Position numbers and translations under genes: made by a program. A model generated the notes under the pieces. That model was given only the letters and a program-made list of their open reading frames with translations. It made no database searches and was not told the DNA's origin. A DNA stretch of 64,000 bases from a phage: sequence record PX418922.1; one strand, given 5' to 3'. This document shows, in pieces, positions 1-52,181 of the stretch; position 1 is the stretch's first letter; each line of letters starts with the position of its first letter.

Positions 1-20
1 GCTAAGAACATTTTTCCTCC

Positions 21-1136
21 TTATTCTGCTGGTTCCCAAGTGCCTGGGATCATTTCTCGAATACGAACACCAACAGGTTTTGTTGGAATACCTTCATCTG
101 AAAATTCTTCATACTCTATTTCAACGAACTGATTAATCAAGGTAGAAGCATTCTCTGCTTTACGATAATTGATAGTCTCATGAGCATCTTTACGCATTAA
201 GAATTCGACTACTTTACCATTTTCCATCTCACCTGTCAACACTCCATCACCATTTTTATCACTTTTTGAATTTGTTACTTTAACTTCAAGGGTGTGGCGA
301 GGCTTACGTTTAATAACGTCATAAGAACGTTTATCAAATTCGTAAACTCCGTGAGCATTACGATATACTACACCTTCAGCTTTCTCAAGTAAAGCTTTTT
401 CATAGAAAGCATCAAACTGTTCTTGGTTTTCAATATACTCTGTATGAACTACGCAAATAAGCTCGTCAAGACCATAATCTTCAACTACTGCCTTAAGAGC
501 AGCAAGAACATCAACACGTTTTTCAAACGGTAGATCTGGAACTGGAATATCATATACGTAATAATTCAGCAAAGGTGTATTTGCATTATGCTTCTTCCAG
601 GCACTGTTAATTTGTTGCAGACTAAGGACACCTAACCCAGCAAACACTTCACCATCAAGAGGATGACCAACAACTTCACTAATAAAGTTTGGAATACCTT
701 TCCAATGAGGTGGCAGGTTATACACTTCTCCAGCTTTTGATAAACACTCCCCTTTCATGTTAATCATAGAACGTAACCCGTTCAGTTTGTATTGTGCATA
801 ACCAGGGAACACAACCCTTTCAGGATAATCTTTATAATCCTGGCATTTCATTGGTGTGGAAGGAACATGGTTTTCAGCTTCTTCTTTTGTTTTATAATAG
901 CCATTCTTTAACTGTTTTGTCCATTTGGCAAAAGCTTCAAGTTCAGCTTGTTCTTCCGGTGTTGTTTCATTGGAACGACCAATGTTTTTTGCTTCTGCTG
1001 TATAAGATTTTTCTGTGATTTTTCCACCTACCCTTCCATGAGCTACAGTAACAACTGCACCATCTGTATACACTGTCCACTGTTTAAGTTTTCCTTTTGA
1101 ATCTTTACCATACAGCGTTTGATTTGTTTGTTGCAT
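21..1136 (-). CDS. ATP-dependent polynucleotide ligase (DNA or RNA ligase)
   Basis: Nucleotidyltransferase motifs in translation: motif I KLNGLR, DGEVF, EGVVYRN, lysine-rich motif V region; start set at MQQTN because GGGAGG RBS precedes it (first ATG of track ORF lies in the RBS). Confidence 0.55.
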   Translation of the reverse strand: MQQTNQTLYGKDSKGKLKQWTVYTDGAVVTVAHGRVGGKITEKSYTAEAKNIGRSNETTPEEQAELEAFAKWTKQLKNGYYKTKEEAENHVPSTPMKCQDYKDYPERVVFPGYAQYKLNGLRSMINMKGECLSKAGEVYNLPPHWKGIPNFISEVVGHPLDGEVFAGLGVLSLQQINSAWKKHNANTPLLNYYVYDIPVPDLPFEKRVDVLAALKAVVEDYGLDELICVVHTEYIENQEQFDAFYEKALLEKAEGVVYRNAHGVYEFDKRSYDVIKRKPRHTLEVKVTNSKSDKNGDGVLTGEMENGKVVEFLMRKDAHETINYRKAENASTLINQFVEIEYEEFSDEGIPTKPVGVRIREMIPGTWEPAE

Positions 1137-1357
1137 TAGTCCTCCCATTTAAAAACTGAAATTTTCAATCTGTTACACACTTCATCCAAATCTGCGTCGA
1201 GTAACGTTGTAGATGTTGCCAACATATAATCAATGCTTGTGAAACCTTGCCCTTTGGCATAGTCAAACATATCTTCATACATATCTTCAAGATCACCGTC
1301 ATCAAAAGTAGCTAGAAAATCCTCGTCCCCACTACGAACATAAAATGCAGTACTCAT
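1136..1357 (-). CDS. hypothetical acidic protein
   Basis: ORF in tight operon packing with neighbours; no recognisable motif. Confidence 0.4.
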   Translation of the reverse strand: MSTAFYVRSGDEDFLATFDDGDLEDMYEDMFDYAKGQGFTSIDYMLATSTTLLDADLDEVCNRLKISVFKWED

Positions 1358-1542
1358 TCATCTTCATCCCAAGATTCAAAAACGCAGCAATCATCGGTTT
1401 CTATAATACCAACACGTCCGCAGGTATTGCAAGTGATTTTATCACCGTAGAATAAATAATTTTTATCACCCTCTGTGTTTACAGTTATGTCATTACTACC
1501 ACAAGGGCAAGTCAGCCAACCAACAACGATATCTTTTTTCAT
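1354..1542 (-). CDS. small zinc-ribbon protein
   Basis: CPCG...CNTCG cysteine pairs; 4-nt overlap with flanking ORFs. Confidence 0.4.
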   Translation of the reverse strand: MKKDIVVGWLTCPCGSNDITVNTEGDKNYLFYGDKITCNTCGRVGIIETDDCCVFESWDEDE

Positions 1543-1862
1543 AATCCATCCTTAATGAGTTCGTAAATCTCTTCCTGAAGAGCATCGATCTCTTCCTCCA
1601 AACGAGAGATCTCTTCTTTTAGATATACCATTTCGGATTCTTTCTCTTCTAACTCATTTTCAAATTTTACTTTATTCGCCTCATTTTCATAATGGAGTTC
1701 AGCGTAATCATCGCGCATTTGTTCAATAAGATGAATCAGAGACAAGATGTAATTATCTCCCGTTTCATCACGCCATTCTTCACCGTGGCGGAGAACGGTA
1801 ATTCGTCCAGTATCTTCATCTAAAATTGTCTCATATTTACGATCATCTGTATAAATCTGCAT
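1539..1862 (-). CDS. hypothetical coiled-coil protein
   Basis: Heptad-rich C-terminus (EEISRLEEEIDALQEEIYELIK); operon packing. Confidence 0.4.
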   Translation of the reverse strand: MQIYTDDRKYETILDEDTGRITVLRHGEEWRDETGDNYILSLIHLIEQMRDDYAELHYENEANKVKFENELEEKESEMVYLKEEISRLEEEIDALQEEIYELIKDGL

Positions 1863-1871
1863 TATTACTCC

Positions 1872-2276
1872 TTATTGAAGTTTAAGTGAACCACGAAGAC
1901 GTTTCTCTTGCTGATCACGAATATATTGTGGAACCTCGTGAATTGAATCATTACCGTGCCTATTTTCAACAACTAAAGAGATAACTTGATAACCAAACTC
2001 TTCAGCAAGAGTTAGATAAGGTTTAAGTTCTTTCTCTGTGGTTGAAGTGTTAGAAACAATAATCTTGTTAAGATTAGATGCCATAGCATCACGAACAATA
2101 CTCTGACACCATGCGTGTGCTTTACCTACGTTTTCTGGCTTCCAATCGTAAACACCACTTTCTGTGTAATGATATTGATCTGCCTCACAGATAGGCCAAT
2201 AACCTTCAGAAATAATTTCTGCTACTGTAGATTTACCAGCACCTGAAACGCCACGTAAAATGATAAGTTGTTTCAT
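1872..2276 (-). CDS. P-loop polynucleotide 5'-kinase-like protein
   Basis: Walker A GVSGAGKST at N-terminus, small size, adjacent to ligase and phosphoesterase as in Pnkp-type RNA repair enzymes. Confidence 0.6.
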   Translation of the reverse strand: MKQLIILRGVSGAGKSTVAEIISEGYWPICEADQYHYTESGVYDWKPENVGKAHAWCQSIVRDAMASNLNKIIVSNTSTTEKELKPYLTLAEEFGYQVISLVVENRHGNDSIHEVPQYIRDQQEKRLRGSLKLQ

Positions 2277-3209
2277 TTATCCTCCAAAGAAGTTTTCGAT
2301 TTTTTCACGTCGCTCCTGCTGATTTAAAGCAGCCCATTGAGTCTTCGTAAAATTATTTCGAATCCATTCTAACAAAGCGTAATATTCTTCGTCAACAATT
2401 TGTTTGGCATTTTTTGGATTATCCCAAATCAGATCCCACTTTTTATCTCCACCACGCATAAGAAACTTCTTAGTAAGATAGTGTGGTGATTTAATTTTTA
2501 AAAGTAAGTTGAACGGATAGTTTGTTTCACGAACTACAAATCCTTCGTGTTTACAATGTTTAGACATTTCAACAACATCTGAAAACTTAACCATTGGATG
2601 AACTTCAGGACGCTTAAATTTGGTGACAGAAGCAATTCCATCAAGAGCACCTTCAGGTAACATAAAACTTGTCCCATCAGGATTTTGAATTCTGGCACCA
2701 ATTAAGTATGCACCTGGTTCTTCTTCGACAATATGCGGATCAGAAGGATCACAGATTTCAAAAAGGAAAGTTGCTTTTGCACTCTCTGTCCATTTGATGA
2801 AATGTTCTATGTCATCACACTCTGAAATAATATGATTCTTTGCAATACTTGCAAAATCTGATTCAAGGCTTCCTGTTGTCGATACAATAAGTTGACCTTT
2901 ATATACACCTACAGAGGCCATAAAACCATTTACTTTACGAACCACATCTACAAATTCATCCGCTGGTAGATCTGTGCCATTCTCAAAACGATTAAAAATC
3001 TTAGTGAAAGGCCAAATAACAACATTGTCATCAGCGTCAACAACGATTCCGCGACATTCTAGAAGACGAGAATCAATGTTCCATAGGTTATCCCAGAAAA
3101 CTTTGTTCTTATACTTAAGAACAGATAGACCAGAATACTCTCCTTCTTTATATGTTTTCTTATGAACTAAACCTTTTTCAACTAAATCGTCGCAATTAAA
3201 TTTAGCCAC
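2277..3209 (-). CDS. RNA ligase-like nucleotidyltransferase (Rnl1-like)
   Basis: Motif I KVNGFM about 90 aa from N-terminus, EG motif HEGFVVRE, motif V LLLKIKSP. Confidence 0.55.
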   Translation of the reverse strand: MAKFNCDDLVEKGLVHKKTYKEGEYSGLSVLKYKNKVFWDNLWNIDSRLLECRGIVVDADDNVVIWPFTKIFNRFENGTDLPADEFVDVVRKVNGFMASVGVYKGQLIVSTTGSLESDFASIAKNHIISECDDIEHFIKWTESAKATFLFEICDPSDPHIVEEEPGAYLIGARIQNPDGTSFMLPEGALDGIASVTKFKRPEVHPMVKFSDVVEMSKHCKHEGFVVRETNYPFNLLLKIKSPHYLTKKFLMRGGDKKWDLIWDNPKNAKQIVDEEYYALLEWIRNNFTKTQWAALNQQERREKIENFFGG

Positions 3210-3210
3210 A

Positions 3211-3762
3211 TTACTCTCCTTTGATTATTTTGTGATGGTCTACAGTTACGATATCTCGTTTACTCATCATAGAAATTATCTCATCAAAATGTAAGATTTT
3301 TCCGTGTGCATCCCAACCCACATCTAACATTTTACCATAAGCTTCATCAGGGAAAGATCCGTGGGAATGCCCGTGTAGCATGATTGATCCACGACCTTGT
3401 TTATTCCAGGAGGCCATAGGGTAATGGCTTAAGACGAAGAACAGCTTCTGATATTTCACTTCGTCATAATACACCACTTCTCCATACTCTGCAAGCACTT
3501 CTCGGTGTTTGCTGTAATCATGGTTCCCAACACAATAAGTGATATCCCCTTGGAGGCGGGAAGCAATCTTACGGGTATCTTCTTCAGTCCCGAAACAGAA
3601 GTCACCCAAATGCCACATCTTGACACCTGGACTCGTAGCGCATTTATTCCATGCTTCGATCAGTGCTTCCGTCATGTGGTCCATATCTTCCCACGGTCGA
3701 TATTCAGGAGCAAACTCTCGTATACGTTTGTGCATAAAATGCAAATCACTTGTAATAAACAT
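3211..3762 (-). CDS. calcineurin-like metallophosphoesterase
   Basis: Signature DLHF...GD...GNHD...HGHSH metal-binding motifs. Confidence 0.7.
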   Translation of the reverse strand: MFITSDLHFMHKRIREFAPEYRPWEDMDHMTEALIEAWNKCATSPGVKMWHLGDFCFGTEEDTRKIASRLQGDITYCVGNHDYSKHREVLAEYGEVVYYDEVKYQKLFFVLSHYPMASWNKQGRGSIMLHGHSHGSFPDEAYGKMLDVGWDAHGKILHFDEIISMMSKRDIVTVDHHKIIKGE

Positions 3763-4118
3763 TAGTATAATCCCTCGCTAAATAGGTCACGATCATGACC
3801 ATTACGTTCGTAGTCAATCTGGTCTGCGTGTTTTGCAATAATGTATGCATCTTCACGACTCCACCAATTGTAGTATTGATCAATAAAACCTTGATTGTTT
3901 GGAAGACAATGCACTTTATCAAGCACACCTGCTTCTTTCAATGCATTCAATTGTGCAGATAATACAGGATTTGCATGTCGAACACAAGGAATAATTAACT
4001 CTTCACCATTATTCAAAATATACTTATTTGCAGCACAGACGATAATACGTTGCGCATAATGACCCTCACCAATCCAGGTAAGAGGTTGGTAACAAATATT
4101 GTTTTCAATACCACTCAT
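3762..4118 (-). CDS. hypothetical protein
   Basis: ORF with overlapping start/stop to phosphoesterase gene. Confidence 0.45.
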   Translation of the reverse strand: MSGIENNICYQPLTWIGEGHYAQRIIVCAANKYILNNGEELIIPCVRHANPVLSAQLNALKEAGVLDKVHCLPNNQGFIDQYYNWWSREDAYIIAKHADQIDYERNGHDRDLFSEGLY

Positions 4119-4277
4119 TGTTTCCTAATCCTCTTCTCTTAAGTTATCCTCGATAAAACTAGTATCTGGAAGTAAAAGATCATTACTTGTGTCGGGCCAA
4201 TCCTCTTCTTCTCGGTAGATAAAATAACCTTCGTCCTCTTCTTGTTCCGACCAAACCGAATGATGCATGTTCTCTCC

Positions 4278-4634
4278 TTAATAGTGCACACGAATCATTT
4301 TAATACCATAACGCAGCATGGATTCTTTTGCAAGCATGAATTTATCCCCAGCGGCTGGATTAGAAGTATGCACGAAAATGGTAGGTGAACCAAAGCAAGG
4401 TTTACCAAACGCCAGAAGTTCTTCCAGGCACAGGAAAACATCATACCCATCTTGGTCAGAATCTTCACCCAAATCGTTGTCAAAATGCCACTCGTCTACA
4501 AAACGATAACCCTTCTGCACCTCATTCATGTAGCGAGAGGCAAGAAGTTCCTGTGATGTTTTAAACCAGATTGCATCTGGACAACCATAATCTTTTGGAT
4601 CACGTAAATCATCAAGCCAAATAATAGTACCCAT
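4278..4634 (-). CDS. hypothetical protein (possible receiver-like domain)
   Basis: ORF; acidic DNDLGEDSDQDGYDV segment; function not recognisable. Confidence 0.4.
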   Translation of the reverse strand: MGTIIWLDDLRDPKDYGCPDAIWFKTSQELLASRYMNEVQKGYRFVDEWHFDNDLGEDSDQDGYDVFLCLEELLAFGKPCFGSPTIFVHTSNPAAGDKFMLAKESMLRYGIKMIRVHY

Positions 4635-4644
4635 ATAACCTCCT

Positions 4645-5115
4645 CTAAGCTGGCATGATTAAAAAAGAACTCTCCACTTCAAAATGCCAATCATCTACAA
4701 GCCCTGATTCCCAATCCTTCTCTTCATGGAAAGAGCAAATCCAACGGTACATACCTGGCGGTGTATTCTCAACATCTTCTGGCAACCCGTAATCCAAAGC
4801 TGTCAAACCGTTCTCTGTAAAACTAGAATGGAGATTAGGAGCTTTCAATACAGAAACCCTGCCTCCAACATCTACAGCCACAATCCACTCTGTCATGTAT
4901 GGGCTGTCATATTGAGGCTCATCAGAACCTACCTCAACAGCCTCTGTGCGTAAGATGATAAGAGGCTGCTCTGTGATTGGGGCTTTGACAATATACCCGT
5001 GATCCTCAAAAAGATCGATAACCTCGAACTCATCGCCGTTTTCGACACCATAACTCTTATTCAAAGAGATAAACTTCGGGTTATCATCGTAAGCTTTAGT
5101 TACTTTAATTCTCAT
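4645..5115 (-). CDS. hypothetical protein
   Basis: 156-aa ORF in early leftward operon. Confidence 0.45.
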   Translation of the reverse strand: MRIKVTKAYDDNPKFISLNKSYGVENGDEFEVIDLFEDHGYIVKAPITEQPLIILRTEAVEVGSDEPQYDSPYMTEWIVAVDVGGRVSVLKAPNLHSSFTENGLTALDYGLPEDVENTPPGMYRWICSFHEEKDWESGLVDDWHFEVESSFLIMPA

Positions 5116-5336
5116 TTTTCCTCCTTCACTTTAACCTCAAATTCTACAGGCTTACCCTCAATGTAAAAACACTGATACTCTGCCTTATCATCCTCATCAC
5201 GAGGCCAAGTTACCAAGGAGTTATAGCAATCTTCTGGTGTTTTGAAGATGTTTTTAGTCTCCACAGTAACATTCCCATTAAGTGTTGCCAATACCACCCA
5301 CCCAGCTACAGGGATCATAGTGCCTCCACTTTCCAC
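5112..5336 (-). CDS. hypothetical protein
   Basis: ORF with 4-nt overlap to downstream gene. Confidence 0.35.
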   Translation of the reverse strand: MESGGTMIPVAGWVVLATLNGNVTVETKNIFKTPEDCYNSLVTWPRDEDDKAEYQCFYIEGKPVEFEVKVKEEK

Positions 5337-5493
5337 GTTTTACCCTTATCAACCAAGGTCTTTGCTACAGCATACTCCTTCCCATTAACAAGGAAATAAT
5401 AAACGATAAAAGATTTCCCGATTGTTACTGTCTTAGTAACCTCTACACGTTTAACACCTTGCATGTATTTTGCCTTACCGGAATAGAGTAAAA

Positions 5494-5775
5494 TCATTTT
5501 GCATTCCTCTTGTTGTTGATAACATCCATAGCAGTATATGGTTTATTAGTGCCATGATACTCCAGAATCATTGGAGAGCCTTCTTGCACTACTTCAAAGA
5601 TACCATAAACAGAACTTTCAGCAAATACCATTTGCTTCGTGCCTTCATCGTTTACAACGAGAGAAAACTTCTTGCCTGTCCCGTTGAGGATCTCGTATTT
5701 CTTGCCAGCAGTGAATAATCCAGAGTACCACTCATTATCTGTTGCTTTTACACACTTCAGGAAAGTCTTGATCAT
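5494..5775 (-). CDS. hypothetical protein
   Basis: ORF, operon packing. Confidence 0.4.
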   Translation of the reverse strand: MIKTFLKCVKATDNEWYSGLFTAGKKYEILNGTGKKFSLVVNDEGTKQMVFAESSVYGIFEVVQEGSPMILEYHGTNKPYTAMDVINNKRNAK

Positions 5776-6125
5776 TTCTTTTTGCTCCTCTTTTTAGATT
5801 TCTCATACAAACCTAACACAGCCGCTTCTTTTGCACAAGTAGGAACTGAAGTCATCCCTCTTCTTTTTGCTTCTGGTAGTTGCAAAGTCCATATTCCCCA
5901 CCAATAAATTTGGTCTGCCGTGAGTGGTTCAGCCATTGGATCTGCCTCCTGCTCCTCAAGACGTTGCAACGCTTCTTCAATCTTCTCGATTGGTGTGTCA
6001 AAGACGAATGCCTCCGTATCAAATTTATCTTTCTTAGGAACTGATTTGGCTACTTTGAGAACCTCGTTTTTCGGTTTCTTAGTAACGTTCTTTGGCTTTG
6101 ATAACTTCTTCGGTGTTTTCGCCAC
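5772..6125 (-). CDS. hypothetical lysine-rich protein
   Basis: Lys-rich N- and C-terminal tails flanking an acidic core; possible nucleic-acid binder. Confidence 0.4.
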   Translation of the reverse strand: MAKTPKKLSKPKNVTKKPKNEVLKVAKSVPKKDKFDTEAFVFDTPIEKIEEALQRLEEQEADPMAEPLTADQIYWWGIWTLQLPEAKRRGMTSVPTCAKEAAVLGLYEKSKKRSKKK

Positions 6126-6318
6126 TTACTACCTCCATACGATCTAAAAAGTCATTCACAAATCTCCAGTAACGTTGACCTGTTCTAAGATCTTCATAGA
6201 TAACCACAGGATCAAACACTTTAGATATTCCGGCAGGTTTTGGAAATTCCACTACTGTATATAAACCACCTTTTGCTACACAAGAATAGGTTACGCCTGT
6301 AATTGGATAGTTGCTCAT
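6079..6318 (-). CDS. hypothetical protein
   Basis: ORF. Confidence 0.35.
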   Translation of the reverse strand: MSNYPITGVTYSCVAKGGLYTVVEFPKPAGISKVFDPVVIYEDLRTGQRYWRFVNDFLDRMEVVSGENTEEVIKAKERY

Positions 6319-6509
6319 TTCTTTACGTACTCCATGATTGGGGTATGGTCGCCAGTAAGCGTAACACGGCTGTAGGACACATCTTGTGTCTTCAATGTAT
6401 CAATCCACTCTAAGAAGTGTTCTTTCGCTTCTGTGTAGTTCTGTGTGCCTTTAACAACGTGTATACCATCTAGTGTTACACGGAATACCATTTGAATAAC
6501 GTCTTTCAT
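6315..6509 (-). CDS. hypothetical protein
   Basis: ORF. Confidence 0.35.
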   Translation of the reverse strand: MKDVIQMVFRVTLDGIHVVKGTQNYTEAKEHFLEWIDTLKTQDVSYSRVTLTGDHTPIMEYVKK

Positions 6510-6605
6510 TTCTTACCTCCTTTGTTGTCAAAGTAGCTTACCAGAACATCGTGAACCACACACATGGCAAAAATCAGAACAATTGTTGCCAGGATTGGGT
6601 TCTCA

Positions 6606-6929
6606 CTAATTAGTGCTATCATCTTTAACCACCTCCAATTGCCTTTCGAGTTTGACTTTGTTTGAGAACTGATAATGACACAACTTACATTGCATGTCAA
6701 CAATCTGATCGTGATTTAACCCTACAATTTTAACTTCCTTTGCACCATCCCACTCCAAATACTCAAAGTCATCCAAATGATTACTCTTGTCCAACAAGAA
6801 TGCTATCTGCTGCCATTCGATCTGAATGTCATTTAAATGATATGCTGCACAGAAGATATCCTCATAGTAAAAGACGATCATTGTCATTACTTCGTCCAGT
6901 ACAACTACCTCTTGTCTTGTAAATCTCAT
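6606..6929 (-). CDS. hypothetical protein (first gene of leftward early operon)
   Basis: ORF immediately left of divergent control region. Confidence 0.4.
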   Translation of the reverse strand: MRFTRQEVVVLDEVMTMIVFYYEDIFCAAYHLNDIQIEWQQIAFLLDKSNHLDDFEYLEWDGAKEVKIVGLNHDQIVDMQCKLCHYQFSNKVKLERQLEVVKDDSTN

Positions 6930-7186
6930 TCTAGCCTCCTAAACGCGTCTCTGACGCACTTTTTATATATAAGATGATAAATCACCTTACCTAGTAAGTA
7001 AACTTGCTCTACGAGCCTCTTATGAAGCTTATGTTATAGGCTATACTATTGCTACCTGTTTAAGCAAGGTTTTTTGCACACAGAAAATAATTTTTTAATA
7101 AAACTCTTGACTTTTGTGTTCGAAGTATGCTACCCTAGAAATCTATTAACGAGCGCAGCGAGTTAAGGTTTTAGGTTGTTGATGTA

Positions 7187-7220
7187 GTACTCTGTACTCA
7201 AGTACTGTACTCCGTACTAG
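7187..7220. repeat. tandem heptad repeat (GTACTCN)x5
   Basis: Direct reading of sequence. Confidence 0.7.
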
Positions 7221-7385
7221 ATTAATAATTATTAAATATTAATAATAAATAATTATTAGATCTAACAAACAGGTACAGTGTATCAGAACTGGTACGTACA
7301 GATCAACTTCTATCAATTAAAAAATAAAATAATAAATTATTATAAATAATACTTGATCTATAGATCAGTATGAAGTACAGTACGT
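7187..7385. promoter_or_regulatory. divergent control region: GTAC-type tandem repeats flanking AT-rich palindromes (candidate operator array or origin)
   Basis: Five tandem about-7-bp units GTACTCT GTACTCA AGTACT GTACTCC GTACTAG at 7187-7220; near-palindromic TAATAATTATTAAATATTAATAATAAATAATTATTA at 7221-7257; GGTACAG / GGTACGTACAG / GTACAGTACGT copies at 7271-7301 and 7374-7385; GATCTATAGATC palindrome at 7355-7366. Confidence 0.5.
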
Positions 7386-7413
7386 AACATCTTAACAAGA
7401 ATGGAGGTGTGCA

Positions 7414-7599
7414 ATGATTAGTGAGAATCCGTGCAAATGGCATCATGTGCCTATTAAAGATTGTATGTCTTGTAATCCACGTTCTATTTATAACATTGCA
7501 TCTTATGATGATGACAATGTGTTAGACGATGATGAAGGCTGGGAGGATTTAGATTGGACTGGTTATGAAACCAAAAGGGATAAAATTATTCCTAGTTGA
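7414..7599 (+). CDS. hypothetical protein
   Basis: ATG preceded by GGAGG; acidic C-terminus. Confidence 0.4.
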   Translation: MISENPCKWHHVPIKDCMSCNPRSIYNIASYDDDNVLDDDEGWEDLDWTGYETKRDKIIPS

Positions 7600-7636
7600 C
7601 TTAAGATATCCTTCGTGCTAAACTAGAAGTGAGGAG

Positions 7637-7888
7637 ATGCCGATCACTCCCCATTTGGGGTTCGAAGGATATATGCAAAATAGCTTTTATTTTAGGTGCC
7701 GTGCTTGTAATAGGCATTTGACAAACCACTCCAGACGTGATAAAAATGGAGTCATCAAGGAATCAGACCTCTGTTCTATTTGCACAGGTTTGGCTTTTGA
7801 TGATAGTCCCGAAAGGGTTTATCAGCATCAATATATAACAGACGTTCTCGTGTCAAACTTGGTAGAGGACGAACAACTAACAGATTAG
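7637..7888 (+). CDS. small zinc-finger protein
   Basis: CRACNRH...CSIC cysteine pairs; true start may be the internal Met (MQNSF). Confidence 0.35.
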   Translation: MPITPHLGFEGYMQNSFYFRCRACNRHLTNHSRRDKNGVIKESDLCSICTGLAFDDSPERVYQHQYITDVLVSNLVEDEQLTD

Positions 7889-7896
7889 GAGGAACA

Positions 7897-8145
7897 ATGT
7901 CTCTATTAGAAAAACACGTGTTTGAAGATGGTAACGGCAATGCAGTTTTTCTTTTCCATCCAGAAAAATACACATCTGAAAACAATGGTACAACTTCTAT
8001 TGTAATCACTAAAGATGTTAAAGTTATTGATTTCTTGGCTCTGATGCGAGAGATGGATCTTGAAATTAATACTTTTAACGCAGAAGCTTTGGTTGTTGCT
8101 CTTCTGGAAAAGAAAGATAGTGAAGAAGTAGCAGAATATGCTTAA
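7897..8145 (+). CDS. hypothetical protein
   Basis: ATG preceded by AGGAGGAACA. Confidence 0.45.
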   Translation: MSLLEKHVFEDGNGNAVFLFHPEKYTSENNGTTSIVITKDVKVIDFLALMREMDLEINTFNAEALVVALLEKKDSEEVAEYA

Positions 8146-8153
8146 ATAACTAT

Positions 8154-8183
8154 TGACAAACGTATCCTTCATATGTTAGGATA
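8154..8183 (+). promoter_or_regulatory. sigma70-like promoter (TTGACA-N18-TAGGAT)
   Basis: Member of recurring CTATTGACAA family; upstream of first tRNA block. Confidence 0.5.
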
Positions 8184-8391
8184 CGTTCATCAAGTGTGGT
8201 AACAGTGTCGTTGACTTTTGTTAAGAGGGGCTTGCACTGCGGTAGTGTTAGAGACTACTTCTTCAGAGGTTAGCTACCAAAGAGGAAAAGGAACAGTCTC
8301 GGCTCAAGAACTTTTACGCTGAAAGTTGGGCTTGGTCTTAGAGAATGTAGCGGTTCTCTACAATCGTCAGCGTCTCTGTTACCACATTTAT

Positions 8392-8463
8392 GGCCCTGTA
8401 GCTCAATGGGAGAGCTGTCGGCTCATAACCGATAGGTAGCTGGATCGAAACCAGCCAGGGCCA
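8392..8463 (+). tRNA. tRNA-Met (anticodon CAT)
   Basis: Hand-folded cloverleaf: 7-bp acceptor GGCCCTG/CAGGGCC, D-stem GCTC/GAGC, anticodon loop CTCATAA, T-arm, encoded CCA. Confidence 0.7.
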
Positions 8464-8468
8464 CCAAC

Positions 8469-8540
8469 GTCTTTATGGTGTAATGGATAGCACAGGAGTC
8501 TTCTAAACTCTTAGTCAAGGTTCGATTCCTTGTAAAGACA
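8469..8540 (+). tRNA. tRNA-Arg (anticodon TCT)
   Basis: Hand-folded cloverleaf: acceptor GTCTTTA/TAAAGAC, anticodon loop CTTCTAA, T-loop TTCGATT, CCA encoded. Confidence 0.65.
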
Positions 8541-8739
8541 CCAGAACATTTTAACATGAATTAGCTCAAGTGATTTGAACCCACTACTGATCATGGTGGC
8601 AGAGAATGAGGCAAGTATGTCAGACATTATAAACAAAGGCCACGGTTATATTAGAAGACATAAATGCTCGAAGAGCACCGCTCGTGGAGAACGGGGGTTG
8701 GTGGAGTCACCATTCATGGTAAAATGTTTTAAAAAACTA

Positions 8740-8769
8740 TTGACAACTAACATTATTTTATGTTAGATT
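8740..8769 (+). promoter_or_regulatory. sigma70-like promoter (TTGACA-N17/18-TAGAT)
   Basis: CTATTGACAA family member directly upstream of tRNA-Ser. Confidence 0.5.
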
Positions 8770-8777
8770 ATAAGTAT

Positions 8778-8865
8778 GGAAGGGCAAATCGACGTGGCGA
8801 CGAAAACGGTCTTGAAAACCGCCGAGCTTGAAAGAGCCTTGGGAGTTCGACTCTCCCTCCTTCCG
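8778..8865 (+). tRNA. tRNA-Ser (anticodon TGA), long variable arm
   Basis: Acceptor GGAAGGG/TCCTTCC, anticodon loop CTTGAAA, long extra arm, T-loop TTCGACT, CCA encoded. Confidence 0.65.
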
Positions 8866-8872
8866 CCAGATT

Positions 8873-8955
8873 GGTAGATTGGTGAAATGGTAGCCACGAC
8901 AGTTTGCTAAACTGTAGTCGGAAACGGCGTGTAGGTTCGAGTCCTACATCTACCG
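8873..8955 (+). tRNA. tRNA-Ser (anticodon GCT), long variable arm
   Basis: Acceptor GGTAGAT/ATCTACC, anticodon stem ACAGT/ACTGT with loop TTGCTAA, extra arm, CCA encoded. Confidence 0.7.
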
Positions 8956-9088
8956 CCAAGTTCTTTTTAATATAGCTTACTTTAGCAGAGTAAATCTTCG
9001 GCAAGTGGCGGTAACCACTTTACCGATAACTCATAGTTAGTGGTGTGAACACTGGCTATTTTAAAAAGAATTTAAATATTAGCATTTA

Positions 9089-9173
9089 GGTGAGTTAATT
9101 CCGTAGGGGTAGCGGGGCAGACTGTAAATCTGTTATCATTGCGATTCGGGTGGTTCGACTCCATCACTCACCA
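9089..9173 (+). tRNA. tRNA-Tyr (anticodon GTA), long variable arm
   Basis: Acceptor GGTGAGT/ACTCACC, anticodon loop CTGTAAA, extra arm hairpin, CCA encoded. Confidence 0.7.
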
Positions 9174-9182
9174 CCAAATTAA

Positions 9183-9265
9183 GATGAGTTGGCTGAATGG
9201 TTTAAGCGGCGGACTGTTAATCCGTGTTCGAAAGAACGATATAGGTTCAAATCCTATACTCATCG
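9183..9265 (+). tRNA. type II (long-arm) tRNA, anticodon loop reads CTGTTAA (GTT by position; identity uncertain)
   Basis: Acceptor GATGAGT/ACTCATC, 3-bp D-stem, variable-arm hairpin GTTC-GAAA-GAAC, T-loop TTCAAAT, CCA encoded; a GTT anticodon with a long extra arm is atypical. Confidence 0.5.
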
Positions 9266-9275
9266 CCAGAATTAT

Positions 9276-9351
9276 GGACTTGTAGAGTTAAGGTAAACCC
9301 CCAGTCGCCAAGAGGCTTCTGGAATTGCAGGTATCGAATCCTGCCGAGTCC
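9276..9351 (+). tRNA. tRNA-like element (degenerate; possible pseudo-tRNA)
   Basis: Acceptor GGACTTG/CGAGTCC and T-arm-like GCAGG-TATCGAAT-CCTGC (8-nt loop) present but no canonical anticodon arm; no CCA. Confidence 0.3.
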
Positions 9352-9358
9352 CAGCTTT

Positions 9359-9430
9359 GCTCCTATAGTATAATGGCTATTACAACGGTTTTGTAATCCG
9401 TGGATCTCTGTTCGATTCAGAGTGGGAGCA
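9359..9430 (+). tRNA. tRNA-Thr (anticodon TGT), tentative
   Basis: Acceptor GCTCCTA/TGGGAGC, T-arm CTCTG-TTCGATT-CAGAG, CCA encoded; anticodon stem has a T-T at the loop-closing pair. Confidence 0.5.
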
Positions 9431-9707
9431 CCAACACAACATTAAGAGCACTGTGATTGATCGTCGTATCCTGTGCACAAGGTCTGTTCGAAAGACAGTG
9501 TTCTTAGTATTGTGTTGATCACACAAAAAGAGTTACCTGAAACTTGACCGGAGTAGGGTTGGATGGGGCAAAAGAAGAAGCGGCTCTCCCATCGACAGCA
9601 AGAAGAATAATATTTGACTTTGGTTTTGTATTATTTTAAGTTAGCTTACCGAACGTAGGGCTAGTCACCCAACGGGATACTCGTCACTGTCCCACTCAAT
9701 AAAACTA

Positions 9708-9737
9708 TTGACAACCAATAGTAAAATGTAGTATAGT
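9708..9737 (+). promoter_or_regulatory. sigma70-like promoter (TTGACA-N18-TATAGT)
   Basis: CTATTGACAA family member upstream of tRNA at 9749. Confidence 0.5.
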
Positions 9738-9748
9738 AAAGATGTAGG

Positions 9749-9819
9749 GCGTTCTTGGTGTAGCGGTAGCATTCCGTCCTTCCAAGTCGGCGGCACGAGT
9801 TCGATCCTCGTAGAACGCT
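9749..9819 (+). tRNA. tRNA-Gly (anticodon TCC), tentative
   Basis: Acceptor GCGTTCT/AGAACGC, T-arm ACGAG-TTCGATC-CTCGT, anticodon loop CTTCCAA, CCA encoded; one mismatch in anticodon stem. Confidence 0.5.
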
Positions 9820-9920
9820 CCAAATTATTTAATAAAGGGTTGCCAGAAAACTTTCTCTTTTACTCATGGTTTTCTCCTTCTCTCACACCTCTTCTGGTTG
9901 CCCTTCATTAAATGATTTAT

Positions 9921-9993
9921 TGGTTTGTAGTGTAGTCAGGTAGCACACGACACTTTGACTGTCGTAGGTTTGGTTCAAATCCAGACAGACCAG
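9921..9993 (+). tRNA. tRNA-Gln (anticodon TTG)
   Basis: Acceptor TGGTTTG/CAGACCA, anticodon stem CGACA/TGTCG with loop CTTTGAC, T-loop TTCAAAT, CCA encoded. Confidence 0.7.
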
Positions 9994-10001
9994 CCATATA
10001 A

Positions 10002-10075
10002 CGGAATTTAGCTCAGTTTGGTAGAGCATACGCTTTGGGAGCGTAGGGTCGCAGGTTCGAATCCTGCAATTCCGA
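10002..10075 (+). tRNA. tRNA-Pro (anticodon TGG)
   Basis: C1-G72 acceptor (CGGAATT/AATTCCG) as usual for bacterial tRNA-Pro, anticodon stem TACGC/GCGTA with loop TTTGGGA, T-loop TTCGAAT, CCA encoded. Confidence 0.7.
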
Positions 10076-10084
10076 CCAATTTAA

Positions 10085-10155
10085 TGTTTCGTAGTTCAAT
10101 GGTAGAACCCACGACTGATAATCGTGAGACACAAGTTCGATTCTTGTCGAAACAA
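10085..10155 (+). tRNA. tRNA-Ile (anticodon GAT)
   Basis: Acceptor TGTTTCG/CGAAACA, anticodon stem CACGA/TCGTG with loop CTGATAA, T-arm ACAAG-TTCGATT-CTTGT, CCA encoded. Confidence 0.65.
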
Positions 10156-10160
10156 CCAGT

Positions 10161-10230
10161 TTCCCGTTAGACTTACAGGATAAGAGTTCCACAGCTTATT
10201 GTGATGCTGGTTCGAATCCAGCACGGGATA
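10161..10230 (+). tRNA. tRNA-like element, anticodon arm not resolvable
   Basis: Acceptor (1-72 mismatch) and canonical T-arm GCTGG-TTCGAAT-CCAGC present; anticodon arm could not be folded by hand; no CCA. Confidence 0.3.
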
Positions 10231-10236
10231 CCTAAT

Positions 10237-10312
10237 AGCGGGATAGAGGAGTCTGGTCGTCCTCGCCAGTTTCATATGCTGGAGATCATTGGTTCAAATC
10301 CAATTCCCGCCT
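10237..10312 (+). tRNA. tRNA with CAT anticodon (Met, initiator or Ile2-type)
   Basis: Anticodon stem CCAGT/GCTGG with loop TTCATAT, D-stem GAGG/CCTC, T-arm ATTGG-TTCAAAT-CCAAT, CCA encoded; A1-C72 mismatch at acceptor end. Confidence 0.6.
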
Positions 10313-10430
10313 CCAAATATCGCTTGCCAGCGGTATCTTTGAAGACCTTGCCTGGTTCCTTCTAAGAGGAGGGGTGCGACTCCTTAACGCACAATTATAA
10401 TAAAGCATTTCAAATTAACAGTATTTATTA

Positions 10431-10453
10431 GCCTCCTTATTGGAGGCTTTTTG
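10431..10453 (+). terminator. rho-independent terminator ending the tRNA cluster
   Basis: GCCTCC-TTATT-GGAGGC hairpin followed by TTTTT. Confidence 0.65.
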
Positions 10454-10471
10454 CTATCTATTGAATAAAAC

Positions 10472-10500
10472 TTGACTTATTATTTTTTATATGTTAAGAT
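10472..10500 (+). promoter_or_regulatory. sigma70-like promoter (TTGACT-N17-TAAGAT)
   Basis: Consensus-like -35/-10 about 20 nt upstream of RBS AGGAGG of the 10522 ORF. Confidence 0.5.
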
Positions 10501-10521
10501 AAAGTTTAGGAGGATTTTATT

Positions 10522-10818
10522 ATGCCTAAACTAAAACGTGGTCGTGGAAGACCAACAGCCGAAATGCAACAGATTTACGCAATGGATGCGGCGCAAGCAA
10601 GTGTAAAAGAATTATTTGCAGAGCATTATTTAGAAGCTATGCGGTATATTGTTGAACTTGTTAATGATAAGGATGCAGCAAAACCTCTCCGCTTCCAAGC
10701 AGCTAAAGCTATTAAAGAGCAAGTAGAAGAATGGTTAGAAGAACATTATGAAGCTATGGAAGAAGAAACCCCTGCCGTGCAGAATACAGATGACGTTCCT
10801 AAAAAGATCGTAATCTAA
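10522..10818 (+). CDS. hypothetical DNA-binding protein (AT-hook-like N-terminus); small terminase candidate
   Basis: PKLKRGRGRPT motif at N-terminus; lies upstream of large terminase; assignment by position only. Confidence 0.35.
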   Translation: MPKLKRGRGRPTAEMQQIYAMDAAQASVKELFAEHYLEAMRYIVELVNDKDAAKPLRFQAAKAIKEQVEEWLEEHYEAMEEETPAVQNTDDVPKKIVI

Positions 10819-10867
10819 TCCCTCTCCTCTCTTGGGGCTTTGCCCCTCCTCCTTGTTATTTTTAACA

Positions 10868-23722: not shown

Positions 23723-23988
23723 CACCTGCGATTGAACATGCTATCGACACAGCAACGAAAACCCTTACTTTGAAGTGGTATGAGGTTATTCTTTGCAAAG
23801 TCGTTAAAGATACCTCGGAAACACTGAAAACATTGGATAACTACGGTGTAGATTATCTTTTAAAACTATATGAGTATTTAACATACGAAGAGTATGTTGA
23901 AGCCATGTATGTTAAAGACACTTCAATAAAGAGAAAACATCAAAACCAGACAAATAAAATGTCAGATTTGTTTAAGAAACTTGTTTAA
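23653..23988 (+). CDS. tail assembly chaperone -1 frameshift extension
   Basis: Slippery T TTT TTC at 23653-23659 is in the X XXY YYZ register of the upstream frame; the -1 frame is open from 23629 to stop at 23986-23988. Confidence 0.5.
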   Translation, partial: FFQTRFRKTVHTASGDDEFSSKLTPAIEHAIDTATKTLTLKWYEVILCKVVKDTSETLKTLDNYGVDYLLKLYEYLTYEEYVEAMYVKDTSIKRKHQNQTNKMSDLFKKLV

Positions 23989-24008
23989 TCCAACACGAGG
24001 AACACACT

Positions 24009-51587: not shown

Positions 51588-52181
51588 TTACCAAGGAATA
51601 TCATCTTCTTCCAATCTGGTATCTACTTGAGGTGGACGTGGAACCTTAACCTCTTTCACAAAACGAAGATATGGGAAACGTGTAGCAATTTTAATAACAT
51701 GTTTGGCATCTTCTCTAACATCTTTGTGCAAGAAGCAGATCCCTGTTTCCAAGGTTGTTTCAAAATCTTTAGAATAATAACAGTCCTTCCCATCAAATGC
51801 AGCCTGGCAGATGGACAGATCGAACTCATTTAGAAAGGTTGTCATTACGCTTGGTTCCATAATCATAAGGTTGCAAAGCTGACCATCACGTTCAAACTCA
51901 AAAACGTGTTTAAGACCAGTAACACCTTCATAATTGTCAGAAGCCTCTTTGTTCCCTAGTTTACGAATATTGGTTCCCATTAAAGCAGATGCAATTAATC
52001 CTTGTATTTGTTCTTCAGTCCGATGTGCAGGAAGGGATGTATAGAAATCCAGATCACGTCCAGCAATATCAAGAATACGCCAATCACGAACAGCACCGCC
52101 AGCCAAGACAGAATTAGGATCAGCGATCTTTAATATGGTAAGAATTTCTTTGGCAATATTGATTTGTTTTGATTTAGTCAT
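51588..52181 (-). CDS. Pol-beta superfamily nucleotidyltransferase (CCA-adding/poly(A) polymerase head-domain-like) with SSB-like C-terminal tip
   Basis: LAGGAVRDWRILDIAGRDLDFYT matches the GGxVRD...DxD signature of class II tRNA nucleotidyltransferases; C-terminus ends EEDDIPW. Confidence 0.5.
   Translation of the reverse strand: MTKSKQINIAKEILTILKIADPNSVLAGGAVRDWRILDIAGRDLDFYTSLPAHRTEEQIQGLIASALMGTNIRKLGNKEASDNYEGVTGLKHVFEFERDGQLCNLMIMEPSVMTTFLNEFDLSICQAAFDGKDCYYSKDFETTLETGICFLHKDVREDAKHVIKIATRFPYLRFVKEVKVPRPPQVDTRLEEDDIPW

Follow-up and report, generated by a model that had tools for sequence, protein, structure and literature searches.

A predicted split RNA repair cassette of kinase, RNA ligase and metallophosphoesterase genes in a Phapecoctavirus

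Do neighboring kinase, ligase and phosphatase genes of a phage make up an RNA repair pathway? We addressed this question in a 64,000-nucleotide stretch of phage DNA (sequence record PX418922.1, hereafter the window), which belongs to a Phapecoctavirus, a phAPEC8-like E. coli myovirus, and is 99% identical to vB_EcoM_ASO2A. The initial annotation described a repair set of a kinase, a metallophosphoesterase (MPE) and two ligases. We found all four ORFs at their coordinates on the minus strand, with the described P-loop, KVNG, KLNG and MPE motifs. The kinase, ligase and MPE genes are consecutive, as had been claimed, with gaps of 0 nt (kinase/ligase) and 1 nt (ligase/MPE) that indicate tight coupling of the three. 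Homologues of each of the four proteins number in the hundreds, at E-values as low as 1e-200, and each protein scores above its Pfam gathering threshold; the ORFs are therefore real genes and not chance. Three small ORFs stand between the 21-1136 ligase and the kinase-ligase-MPE block, which we call the cassette.

21-1136, minus strand: ATP-dependent DNA ligase, 371 aa (PF01068, phrog_114, PDB matches)
1136-1357, minus strand: 73-aa protein, orf73 (no Pfam family beyond coiled-coil noise)
1282-1288, no strand: TATCTTC 7-bp direct repeat, left breakpoint of the phAPEC8 deletion (junction mapped by blastn and inspected in the sequence)
1354-1542, minus strand: Zn-ribbon protein, 62 aa (no Pfam family beyond coiled-coil noise)
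1539-1862, minus strand: helix-rich protein, 107 aa (no Pfam family beyond coiled-coil noise)
1872-2276, minus strand: stand-alone P-loop polynucleotide-5'-kinase-like protein, 134 aa (Pfam, PHROG, profile search, linkage)
2277-3209, minus strand: Rnl1-family ATP-dependent RNA ligase, 310 aa (Pfam, PHROG, alignments, profile search, AF2 model)
3211-3762, minus strand: binuclear MPE, 183 aa, proposed 2',3'-end-healing phosphatase (Pfam, PHROG, alignment, linkage)
3576-3582, no strand: TATCTTC 7-bp direct repeat, right breakpoint of the phAPEC8 deletion (junction mapped by blastn and inspected in the sequence)
3762-4118, minus strand: orphan-domain protein, 118 aa, whose stop overlaps the MPE start
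4278-4634, minus strand: cREC (cyclic-phosphate processing receiver) domain protein, 118 aa (PF20274, 1.6e-13, 51.6 vs 27 bits)
8392-10315, plus strand: divergent array of 12 tRNA(-like) genes (ARAGORN 10, Rfam 12, ASO2A annotation 12)

The product of 2277-3209 is by sequence and modeled structure a relative of T4 Rnl1 and Trl1-LIG, in agreement with its annotation as an Rnl1-type ligase. Its GTG start codon is preceded by a good AAGGAG Shine-Dalgarno. Motif I is K92-V-N-G (aa 92-95, window 2925-2936), and this motif, III (F150-E151), IV (E222-G223) and V (K238-x-K240) are invariant in alignments of 16 and of 38 sequences. The protein matches PF09511 at 5.8e-15 (56.2 bits vs a gathering score of 28.3) and phrog_562 at 1.6e-70, and its profile matches T4 Rnl1 (2c5u) at 2.1e-10 in the NTase domain only. 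Trl1-LIG and T4 Rnl1 are the best matches of its AF2 model (pLDDT 92.5; E ~1e-13), with DNA ligases matching at 1e-5 or worse. Where T4 Rnl1 has its C-domain, the C-terminus of the studied ligase (aa 242-307) is short and all-helical. Since the T4 C-terminal tRNA-specificity domain was not found in it by sequence and it reaches just 23.7 bits against the 242-bit cut-off of the NCBIfam RnlA equivalog, its tRNA specificity is only putative. Database annotations of the ligase carry over the label 'tail fiber attachment catalyst'.

The 21-1136 ORF, which at its longest extends to 1148, carries KLNG as its motif I (aa 117-120, window 777-788). It matches PF01068 at 1.7e-9 (38.1 bits vs gathering 26.2) and phrog_114 at 1.9e-74, its PDB matches are DNA ligases without exception (4d05, 6imj), and it is the only annotated DNA ligase of near-identical genomes. 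It is also kept where the cassette is deleted (phAPEC8) or replaced (tuntematon). These matches and its retention in phAPEC8 rule it out as a second RNA-repair ligase: of the two-ligase repair set, the Rnl1-type enzyme stands and 21-1136 falls away. It is the replication and repair DNA ligase of the phage, a co-directional neighbor outside the cassette.

The 1872-2276 product is most likely a Pnk-like RNA-end kinase, as predicted from its motifs and profile matches. It has the P-loop GVSGAGKS (aa 9-16, window 2229-2252), an invariant D33 and E104-x-R106-H107, and matches PF13671 AAA_33 (4.1e-10, 40.5 bits vs gathering 27) and phrog_505 'polynucleotide kinase' (1.7e-8). The best solved relatives of its family profile are polynucleotide kinases, namely Pnkp1 (4xrp, 2.4e-6), T4 Pnk (1ltq, 4.2e-5) and the CthPnkp kinase (4gp7, 2e-4), in line with the annotated function. 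D33 aligns to the T4 catalytic base D35; an equivalent of T4 Arg38 is absent, with His36 there instead, and the second essential Arg aligns ambiguously to T4 Pnk.

The MPE has a complete metal-binding signature (D6-x-H8, G53-D54, G79-N-H-D82, H113 and G131-H-x-H134), invariant in 20 sequences, and matches PF00149 (25.4 bits vs gathering 21.5), PF12850 and phrog_547 (8.7e-56). It is a member of an uncharacterised clade distinct from the bacterial Pnkp phosphatase. Because the one solved structure close to it is that of Aquifex aq_1665 (1xm7, 3.5e-20), itself uncharacterised, and it is not lambda-phosphatase/CthPnkp-like by sequence, it is linkage that suggests its 2',3'-phosphatase role. A metallophosphatase is present in place of a HAD phosphatase, as had been noted; however, the weight given to this swap was overstated. 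In principle it is not new: bacterial Pnkp uses a metallophosphatase (PMC3675462, PMC2190708), and a calcineurin-like phosphoesterase is among the genes that Iyer et al. 2022 list for the same neighborhood type.

We could show statistically that kinase, ligase and MPE are functionally linked, using a census of 80 viral loci (42 ligase clusters at 70% identity) in which nearness was defined as within 1.5 kb. A kinase is near the ligase in 72 loci and an MPE in 59, with both near in 30 of the 42 clusters. The strand is shared with the ligase by 75 of 76 kinase genes and 65 of 66 MPE genes. Gene order differs, with several arrangements among the 80 loci, and 13 loci from two lineages encode a fusion protein with the kinase N-terminal to the ligase. 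The third partner of kinase and ligase is usually an MPE, constant in the wider family. Such tight co-occurrence across diverse phages, and the occasional fusion, upholds the initial reading of T4 Pnkp/Rnl1 logic split into separate genes.

The cassette is accessory and dispensable on permissive hosts. In the type phage phAPEC8, a clean 2,294-bp in-frame deletion between the TATCTTC repeats removed kinase, Rnl1 and MPE along with the three small ORFs (1136-1862), yielding a chimeric gp137 in which MPE aa 1-62 are joined to orf73 aa 26-73. In tuntematon the cassette is replaced. Both phages are viable with a tRNA array but without Rnl1 or kinase. Orthologues in the V5-like relative Bas54 tolerate transposon insertions and are dispensable on E. 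coli K-12, which fits the expectation for a counter-defence accessory. This deletable nature of the block, the nearby tRNA array and the cREC gene had all been missed in the initial annotation.

The products of window 1872-3762 probably make up an RNA 'healing and sealing' pathway split over separate genes, an accessory that would counter host defences or toxins that cleave tRNA or RNA. The genes would form a single leftward transcription unit with translational coupling, divergent from the tRNA array. The MPE would turn the 3' end into a 3'-OH, possibly aided by the nearby cREC opening the cyclic phosphate, the kinase would phosphorylate the 5'-OH, and the ligase would adenylylate at K92 and then join the 3'-OH to the 5'-P. 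Judging from sequence, the cassette most likely mends cut tRNAs; its tRNA activity and its role against anticodon nucleases are what we infer here. The array tRNAs, 4.6 kb away and transcribed divergently, are possible clients, and tRNA-Lys is absent from the array (ARAGORN, Rfam and the ASO2A annotation).

This proximity also suits a housekeeping function, in which the cassette would process or maintain tRNAs or transcripts encoded by the phage, for instance those cut by an endoribonuclease of its own, with no counter-defence. The window codes a small CCA-adding/poly(A)-polymerase-like nucleotidyltransferase, and 49 of the 80 loci have tRNA genes no more than 10 kb from the ligase, a count that has no background control. 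However, the viability of phAPEC8 and tuntematon with the array but without Rnl1 or kinase, the non-essential Bas54 orthologues, and the lack of introns or split genes needing ligation among the array tRNAs (ARAGORN, Rfam) make housekeeping unlikely.

We consider it similarly improbable that the MPE, cREC, MazG, Sir2 and a 'nucleotide kinase' act on small-molecule immune signals or ADPr derivatives by degrading or modifying them, while a separate RNA ligase merely travels along. Iyer et al. assign cREC, Sir2, MazG and calcineurin-like enzymes to NAD/ADPr networks, and their name for the kinase is 'nucleotide kinase'. Past aq_1665, the weak structural relatives of the MPE are phosphodiesterases (GpdQ, Rv0805), and phAPEC8 retains cREC, Sir2 and MazG without the ligase, so that these three may serve another pathway. 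However, only 11 cREC, 10 Sir2 and 1 MazG genes lie within 1.5 kb of the ligase in the 80 loci, far behind kinase and MPE, and the kinase is fused to the ligase and best matches polynucleotide kinases. The sirtuin of the studied phage, 51% identical to that of rV5, lies ~29 kb from the cassette.

T4 Pnk acts on both DNA and RNA, and kinase and MPE could instead clean 5'-OH and 3'-phosphate DNA ends for the ATP-dependent DNA ligase, as in PNKP-type DNA repair or with bacterial ligase-associated PdeM/MPE, leaving the Rnl1-like protein as mainly a tail-fibre attachment factor like T4 gp63, as its database label has it. The cassette is co-directional with the DNA ligase; 44 of the 80 loci have a DNA ligase no more than 5 kb from Rnl1; relatives encode MazG and exonucleases, RdgC-like ones among them, just upstream; and the MPE weakly matches the NCBIfam PdeM 'ligase-associated DNA damage response endonuclease' (E = 0.0044). 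This is nevertheless very unlikely, as that match scores 16 bits vs a cut-off of 150, the DNA ligase is immediately adjacent to the Rnl1-type gene (gap ≤150 nt) in none of the 80 loci, of the two ligase genes Rnl1 is the nearer to the MPE in 32 of 33 loci, the 19 loci without a DNA ligase within 5 kb still have an adjacent MPE in 17 and kinase in 18, the fusion partner of the kinase is Rnl1 and not a DNA ligase, and phAPEC8 lost the cassette while keeping its DNA ligase.

The cREC protein is a probable accessory enzyme for 2',3'-cyclic-phosphate or ADPr>P processing, as its sequence suggests. Its motifs W-L-D-D (aa 6-9), F-D-N-D-L-G (51-56) and H-T-S-N-P (89-93) are conserved, with an intact acidic site in the alignment. 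The rV5 orthologue gp079 comes directly after the rV5 Rnl1, and cREC is linked to the ligase in 12 of 80 loci, in enterobacterial lineages only. It is doubtful that the orphan-domain protein (3762-4118) is part of the module.

The cassette shares with T4 Pnkp and Rnl1, which counter the PrrC anticodon nuclease, the three chemistries of 5'-kinase, 2',3'-phosphatase and Rnl1-type sealing. The ligases share a Pfam family, the K-x-(D/N)-G lysine and motifs III-V, the kinases belong to the P-loop Pnk clade with the catalytic Asp kept, and both systems are dispensable on hosts without the nuclease. However, the studied phage has kinase and phosphatase as separate, contiguous genes (non-contiguous in T4), a binuclear MPE where T4 has a DxDxT (HAD) acylphosphatase, a 310-aa ligase with a short helical C-terminus for the tRNA-specificity domain, and associated cREC, MazG and Sir2 genes. 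Clostridium thermocellum CthPnkp also unites kinase, metallophosphoesterase and ligase, but its phosphatase is lambda-phosphatase-like, which the studied MPE is not detectably, and its ligase is Rnl4-type instead of Rnl1. Pnkp1-Rnl-Hen1 of Capnocytophaga gingivalis, a split bacterial precedent that mends ribotoxin-cut tRNA in vitro, has a ligase split from and co-translated with the healing enzyme, and among solved proteins Pnkp1 is the best match of the studied kinase. Its phosphatase is HAD-type, however, and no cassette ORF has a Hen1 methyltransferase or any MTase domain by Pfam. Fungal and plant Trl1 (LIG-KIN-CPD, with Tpt1) provides the structure that the ligase model matches best (Trl1-LIG, E = 1.3e-13, TM 0.67-0.69) and, like some phage relatives, has kinase and ligase on one polypeptide; the phage fusions have the reverse domain order (KIN-LIG), and 3' healing would be done by the MPE, with or without cREC, in place of the Trl1 2H cyclic phosphodiesterase.

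The RNA-repair reading of this neighborhood is already published from comparative genomics. Iyer et al. 2022 (Viruses 14:1977, section 3.7.3) described a sirtuin-linked RNA-repair neighborhood of phages V5 and Mydo with the same families (T4-like tRNA ligase, cREC, nucleotide kinase, MazG-family pyrophosphatase and calcineurin-like phosphoesterase), and the studied proteins are direct homologues of those of rV5 (ligase 47.7% identity; cREC). In the studied Phapecoctavirus, however, the sirtuin is outside the cluster, the order is MPE-Rnl1-kinase on one strand, and the MPE is constant in the wider family, not occasional. In phage Adele, a Pakpunavirus (Viruses 2025, 18:42), a homologous PAK_P1-like pair of kinase and RNA ligase (ligase 37-39% identity in Pseudomonas phages) was likewise read as tRNA repair; that paper notes an absent 3'-phosphatase domain and draws no link to the neighboring phosphoesterase, whereas our census ties the MPE to this pair as its usual third partner.

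The first 8 kb of the window matched 127 phage records, the best being Escherichia phage vB_EcoM_ASO2A (99.0% identity, 100% query coverage), of genus Phapecoctavirus, subfamily Stephanstirmvirinae. GC content across the window is 37-43%, and GC skew switches sign near 7-8 kb and 50 kb, coinciding with changes in transcription direction. All ORFs claimed in the initial annotation exist on the minus strand, and the motifs it quoted are present: KVNG at aa 92-95 of the RNA ligase, KLNG at aa 117-120 of ORF 21-1136, and GVSGAGKS at aa 9-16 of the kinase. A gene for cREC, a "cyclic-phosphate processing" receiver-domain protein, had been overlooked. In dozens of near-identical genomes the cassette genes are annotated as RNA ligase, ATPase or polynucleotide kinase, and phosphoesterase.

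21-1136, minus strand, DNA-ligase-like ORF (longest ORF extends to 1148)
1872-2276, minus strand, kinase of 134 aa with one domain
2277-3209, minus strand, RNA ligase with a GTG start and an AAGGAG Shine-Dalgarno sequence
3211-3762, minus strand, metallophosphoesterase (MPE)
4278-4634, minus strand, cREC domain protein (PF20274)

These genes are tightly packed. Following the minus strand from its 5′ side, the spacings are 9 nt from cREC to orf47, 6 to p118 (a 118-aa ORF), -1 to the MPE, 1 to the ligase, and 0 to the kinase, then 9 to a helix-rich ORF, -4 to a Zn-ribbon ORF, -4 to orf73, and -1 to the DNA-ligase-like ORF. A scan of 1-8400 for consensus promoters and terminators gave counts not above shuffled expectation (29 vs 24.8; 7 vs 4.9), and the ASO2A depositors annotated no promoter or terminator within the cassette stretch. 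Based on the gene spacing and this annotation without internal signals, we regarded the stretch as a single leftward unit, divergent from the tRNA array.

The RNA ligase scores 56.2 bits against PF09511 (RNA_lig_T4_1; cut-off 28.3) and matches phrog_562 at 1.6e-70. Two alignments, of 16 and of 38 homologues sharing 49-86% identity, show motifs I (K92-x-N94-G95, with V at x), III (F150-E151), IV (E222-G223), and V (K238-x-K240, with I at x) to be invariant, and the family profile aligns K92 with T4 K99. Single-sequence PDB searches with the ligase, kinase, and MPE returned nothing useful, so profiles were needed. The ligase profile matched T4 Rnl1 (2c5u, E = 2.1e-10), confined to T4 residues 51-250, the adenylyltransferase domain. 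Using an AlphaFold2 model (pLDDT 92.5) as a Foldseek query, we found that the top matches were the fungal tRNA ligase Trl1-LIG structures 9qw7, 6n0t, and 8rbj (E 1.3e-13 to 7e-13, TM 0.67-0.69), with T4 Rnl1 (5tt6, 9do4, 2c5u) at about 1e-13 to 1e-12. Rnl3 (~1e-10), Rnl2 (~1e-6), Rnl5, and DNA ligases (1e-5 or worse) were remoter. By threshold, motifs, and predicted structural neighbours, the protein is assigned to the Rnl1 family. It is not a T4 RnlA equivalog (NCBIfam TIGR02308, 23.7 bits vs a cut-off of 242). T4 RnlA has a C-terminal tRNA-specificity domain at about aa 255-374, in place of which the model predicts ~65 helical residues running to aa 310. By analogy, the ligase is a putative sealer of 3′-OH/5′-PO4 RNA breaks such as those in tRNA anticodon loops.

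The kinase passes PF13671 (AAA_33) and matches phrog_505, "polynucleotide kinase". In the polynucleotide kinase clade, a P-loop GxxGxGK(S/T) is followed ~20 residues downstream by a catalytic Asp general base; here the P-loop GVSGAGKS is followed by an invariant D33 that aligns with the catalytic D35 of T4 Pnk. Against solved structures, a 16-member profile best matched Capnocytophaga Pnkp1 (4xrp, 2.4e-6), followed by T4 Pnk (1ltq/1ly1, about 4e-5), the CthPnkp kinase domain (4gp7, 2e-4), and, after these polynucleotide kinases, L-seryl-tRNA(Sec) kinase. Gluconate, adenylate, and NMN-type kinases matched more weakly and over the P-loop only. As judged by profile, polynucleotide kinases rather than nucleotide kinases are its nearest solved relatives. 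T4 Pnk has two essential arginines, R38 touching the acceptor phosphate and R126 touching the ATP beta-phosphate. The R38 position is a nearly invariant His36 in this family, and the invariant R106 is aligned by HMMER with T4 R122 rather than R126, in a region where the alignment is ambiguous. The single domain leaves no fused 3′-phosphatase, and that role, if filled at all, would fall to the separate MPE gene.

Across 20 MPE homologues (35-79% identity), the metal motifs D6-x-H8, G53-D54, G79-N80-H81-D82, H113, and G131-H132-x-H134 are invariant, and the protein scores 25.4 against PF00149 (cut-off 21.5). From its sequence, assignment to the binuclear metallophosphoesterase class is certain. 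The only close solved relative of its profile is 1xm7 (3.5e-20), the Aquifex protein aq_1665, a structural-genomics protein of unknown function; GpdQ comes next at 0.03. Neither lambda-Pase nor the CthPnkp phosphatase domain matched the profile in the PDB at E up to 1, and the MPE is unrelated to the genome's own lambda-phosphatase-like gene, a second metallophosphoesterase lying outside the window (30503-31246 in ASO2A). We also considered a PdeM-type partner of the DNA ligase and rejected it, as TIGR04123 gave 16.4 bits vs a cut-off of 150 and the neighbourhood statistics are contrary. RNA ends are a candidate substrate, suggested by genomic context.

The initial annotation had counted the KLNG protein of 21-1136 as a second RNA-repair ligase, a reading that its family membership contradicts. 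This ORF passes PF01068 (38.1 bits vs 26.2) and misses the PF09414 RNA_ligase threshold (16.9 vs 27); phrog_114, "ATP-dependent DNA ligase", spans its aa 5-366 at 1.9e-74; and its solved relatives are DNA ligases throughout (Lig E-type 4d05, ASFV ligase 6imj, and 6dt1). Other DNA ligase annotations are absent from the rest of the near-identical genome and of the window. We therefore classify its predicted product as an ATP-dependent DNA ligase.

The ligase was found by tblastn in 689 phage records, including those of Escherichia (199), Pseudomonas (175), Vibrio (83), and Streptomyces (78). To measure linkage, we ran iterated HMMs, built from window and rV5 seeds, over the six-frame ORFs of 80 viral-contig loci carrying ligase homologues (41-88% identity). 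Measured edge to edge, 72/80 loci have the kinase no more than 1.5 kb from the ligase and 59/80 the MPE, on the same strand in 75/76 and 65/66 cases. Once the ligases are collapsed into 42 clusters (70% identity), 30 clusters have both partners inside that distance. Gene orders vary, and include MPE-Rnl-kinase, kinase-Rnl-MPE, and MPE..Rnl-cREC-kinase-Sir2. In 13 loci (2 clusters), kinase and ligase form a single ORF of ~430 aa with a complete kinase profile at aa 13-142 and the ligase profile at aa 155-427. These fusions occur in environmental viral contigs (L056 at 9539-10831, L057, L060-L068, L070, and L072), and an MPE was not detected in the fetched flanks of any of the 13. Fungal Trl1 has the order LIG-KIN, whereas the phage fusion has the kinase N-terminal. 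A DNA ligase lies within 5 kb of Rnl1 in 44/80 loci and is adjacent in none; the MPE is nearer Rnl1 than the DNA ligase in 32 of 33 loci, and at 19 well-flanked loci without a nearby DNA ligase, Rnl1 is still adjoined by the MPE (17) and kinase (18). This indicates that the aq_1665-type MPE is a regular third partner of the kinase and ligase. The census and the fusion uphold the kinase/Rnl1/MPE part of the repair set originally proposed; the ligase of 21-1136 drops out as a DNA ligase. Proximity of tRNA genes to the ligase (49/80 loci) has no background control and is not taken as functional evidence.

The overlooked cREC gene scores 51.6 bits against PF20274 (cut-off 27) and keeps the acidic receiver-type site (the DD pair, the D of FDNDLG, and T/S-N-P) in 18 homologues; its rV5 orthologue, gp079, comes directly after the rV5 Rnl1. 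In the Aravind group's definition (PMC7824862), cREC is an enzyme predicted to process cyclic phosphates and linked to RNA ligases, and Iyer et al. 2022 described a "type 2" neighbourhood of T4-like tRNA ligase, cREC, nucleotide kinase, and MazG around a sirtuin, with a calcineurin-like phosphoesterase as an optional member. The window encodes ligase, cREC, kinase, and MPE, and a MazG/PRA-PH-like gene (PF01503) lies just past the window start in near-identical genomes. The sirtuin is not clustered here: the orthologue, 51% identical to rV5 gp080 (E = 2e-94) and located outside the window (23786-24586 in ASO2A), is ~29 kb from the cassette. Among the 80 loci, cREC (12), Sir2 (11), and MazG (13) accompany the ligase in enterobacterial lineages only. 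The p118 protein between MPE and cREC is a widespread phage domain that rarely accompanies the ligase, and its confident model gave no known fold or function. Bacterial Pnkp/Hen1 and Pnkp1-Rnl-Hen1 systems have a Hen1 2′-O-methyltransferase, whereas no methyltransferase domain was found in any ORF from 21 to 5115. The 62-aa Zn-ribbon protein (CPCG...CNTCG) at 1354-1542 on the minus strand has no Pfam match, only phrog_4446 (unknown function); the depositor of SKA64 labelled it a Lar-family restriction-alleviation protein.

Natural variants show that the cassette is dispensable. In the type phage, phAPEC8, window positions 1-1288 and 3576-8400 align contiguously and the block between them, which includes the Zn-ribbon gene, is absent. 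A 7-bp direct repeat, TATCTTC (1282-1288 and 3576-3582), marks the junction, and the 2,294-bp deletion is in-frame, yielding gp137, in which MPE aa 1-62 are joined to orf73 aa 26-73. This truncated MPE gene implies deletion in phAPEC8, not insertion elsewhere. The deletion takes out Rnl1, the kinase, two small ORFs, and the greater part of the MPE; the DNA ligase, cREC, p118, Sir2, MazG, and the tRNA array are kept, as is the lambda-phosphatase-like gene. In phage tuntematon, 1146-5798 is swapped for unrelated DNA encoding a divergent MPE, p118, and cREC without ligase or kinase. Within the genus, variation concentrates in this stretch, from the DNA ligase to a "transposase-like" gene: SKA64 carries an additional "DNA-binding protein" gene of 609 nt there, and ESCO5 an HNH insertion. 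Accessory or counter-defence islands typically vary in this way. In the V5-like phage Bas54, transposon insertions are abundant in the sirtuin, the cREC-position gene, and the RNA ligase, and likewise in the "polynucleotide kinase" and "putative phosphoesterase" (mean counts about 88-440, supplementary file 9; bioRxiv 10.1101/2025.11.20.689424), making these five genes non-essential on E. coli K-12.

The comparisons demonstrate which enzyme classes are present, that their active-site motifs are intact, that the genes are tightly coupled in genomes, with one gene fusion, and that they are dispensable. Judging by the chemistry of T4 Pnkp/Rnl1, CthPnkp, and Pnkp1-Rnl-Hen1 (PMC3592404, PMC3675462, PMC4411300), the MPE, with or without cREC, would heal the 2′,3′-cyclic or 3′-phosphate end, the kinase would put a phosphate on the 5′-OH, and the ligase would join the healed ends. 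We further infer that the module acts on tRNAs cleaved by defence nucleases of the host. A homologous kinase and ligase in Pakpunavirus, where a phosphatase domain is absent, were read the same way (PMC12846349), and our census indicates that the neighbouring MPE supplies the missing phosphatase.

Processing of small molecules (NAD/ADPr or cyclic nucleotides) is a plausible role for cREC, Sir2, and MazG, but it suits the kinase and MPE poorly, since both track the ligase. It is also conceivable, though we think it improbable, that the module runs a eukaryote-like Trl1/Tpt1-type 2′-phosphate chemistry instead of T4 chemistry. cREC would then open the 2′,3′-cyclic phosphate to a 3′-OH,2′-PO4 end, the Rnl1/Trl1-like ligase would seal a junction bearing the 2′-PO4, and the phage sirtuin, acting like Tpt1/KptA, would use NAD+ to strip the 2′-phosphate; the aq_1665-type MPE would represent a hitherto unrecognised class, healing RNA ends or clearing ADPr>P. 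The predicted ligase structure is no closer to T4 Rnl1 than to fungal Trl1-LIG, and in rV5- and PVP-SE1-like phages the conserved sirtuin, unlinked here, sits in a cluster with the ligase. Maintenance of the phage's own tRNAs is disfavoured, as cassette-less relatives are viable and retain the tRNA array. The linkage statistics, the kinase-ligase fusion, and the deletion in phAPEC8 likewise speak against DNA-end processing with the DNA ligase. A part for that enzyme as a second ligase for RNA repair was rejected on family assignment, the same deletion, and the distance statistics.

tRNA-cleaving immune systems, among them PrrC, RloC, PARIS, retron-associated nucleases, and Cas13, are now seen as common, and to our knowledge T4 Pnkp/Rnl1 is the only phage repair answer established by experiment. 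The three-gene cassette is widespread in therapeutic-candidate phages (rV5-, phi92-, phAPEC8-, PVP-SE1-, and PAK_P1-like). If it repairs host-cut tRNAs, it would represent a second, architecturally different repair solution and a host-range predictor, and would assign a function to an uncharacterised metallophosphoesterase clade. The neighbourhood type, its RNA-repair reading, and a bacterial precedent for RNA 3′-healing by a metallophosphatase are already published; what is new is the Phapecoctavirus arrangement with its unlinked sirtuin, the quantitative demonstration that the aq_1665-type MPE is regularly the third partner, the fusion of kinase and ligase, and the deletion found in nature. 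We found no paper treating phAPEC8 together with an RNA ligase. Since comparative genomics had already put forward the concept, what there is to gain is validation rather than discovery, and the natural cassette-plus and -minus pairs (ASO2A-like vs phAPEC8) make the idea directly testable.

Records 96-97% identical over 1-8000 include Campylobacter phage B15, Acinetobacter phage vB_AbaM_ABPW7, and Klebsiella phage ZCKP1, with Pseudomonas phage PsgM04F as a remoter match (84% identity over 55% of the query); either some of these host labels look doubtful or the reported host range of the group looks unusually broad. The tRNA array contains 12 genes, not 10, none of them tRNA-Lys. ARAGORN missed two plus-strand genes that were found by Rfam: 9089-9173 (tRNA model, 39 bits, above the gathering score; Tyr-GUA in the ASO2A annotation) and 8778-8864 (tRNA-Sec model only, 37.4 bits, below the gathering score; Ser-UGA in the ASO2A annotation). 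Adjoining the DNA polymerase gene, 51588-52181 on the minus strand encodes a 197-aa Pol-beta-type nucleotidyltransferase that matched no Pfam family. Its GGAVRD...DLD sequence is the head motif of class-II CCA-adding/poly(A)-polymerase enzymes, and it hits phrog_10174 at 7.9e-63. Annotations in relatives name it a putative tRNA nucleotidyltransferase, and it may be another tRNA-end repair function.
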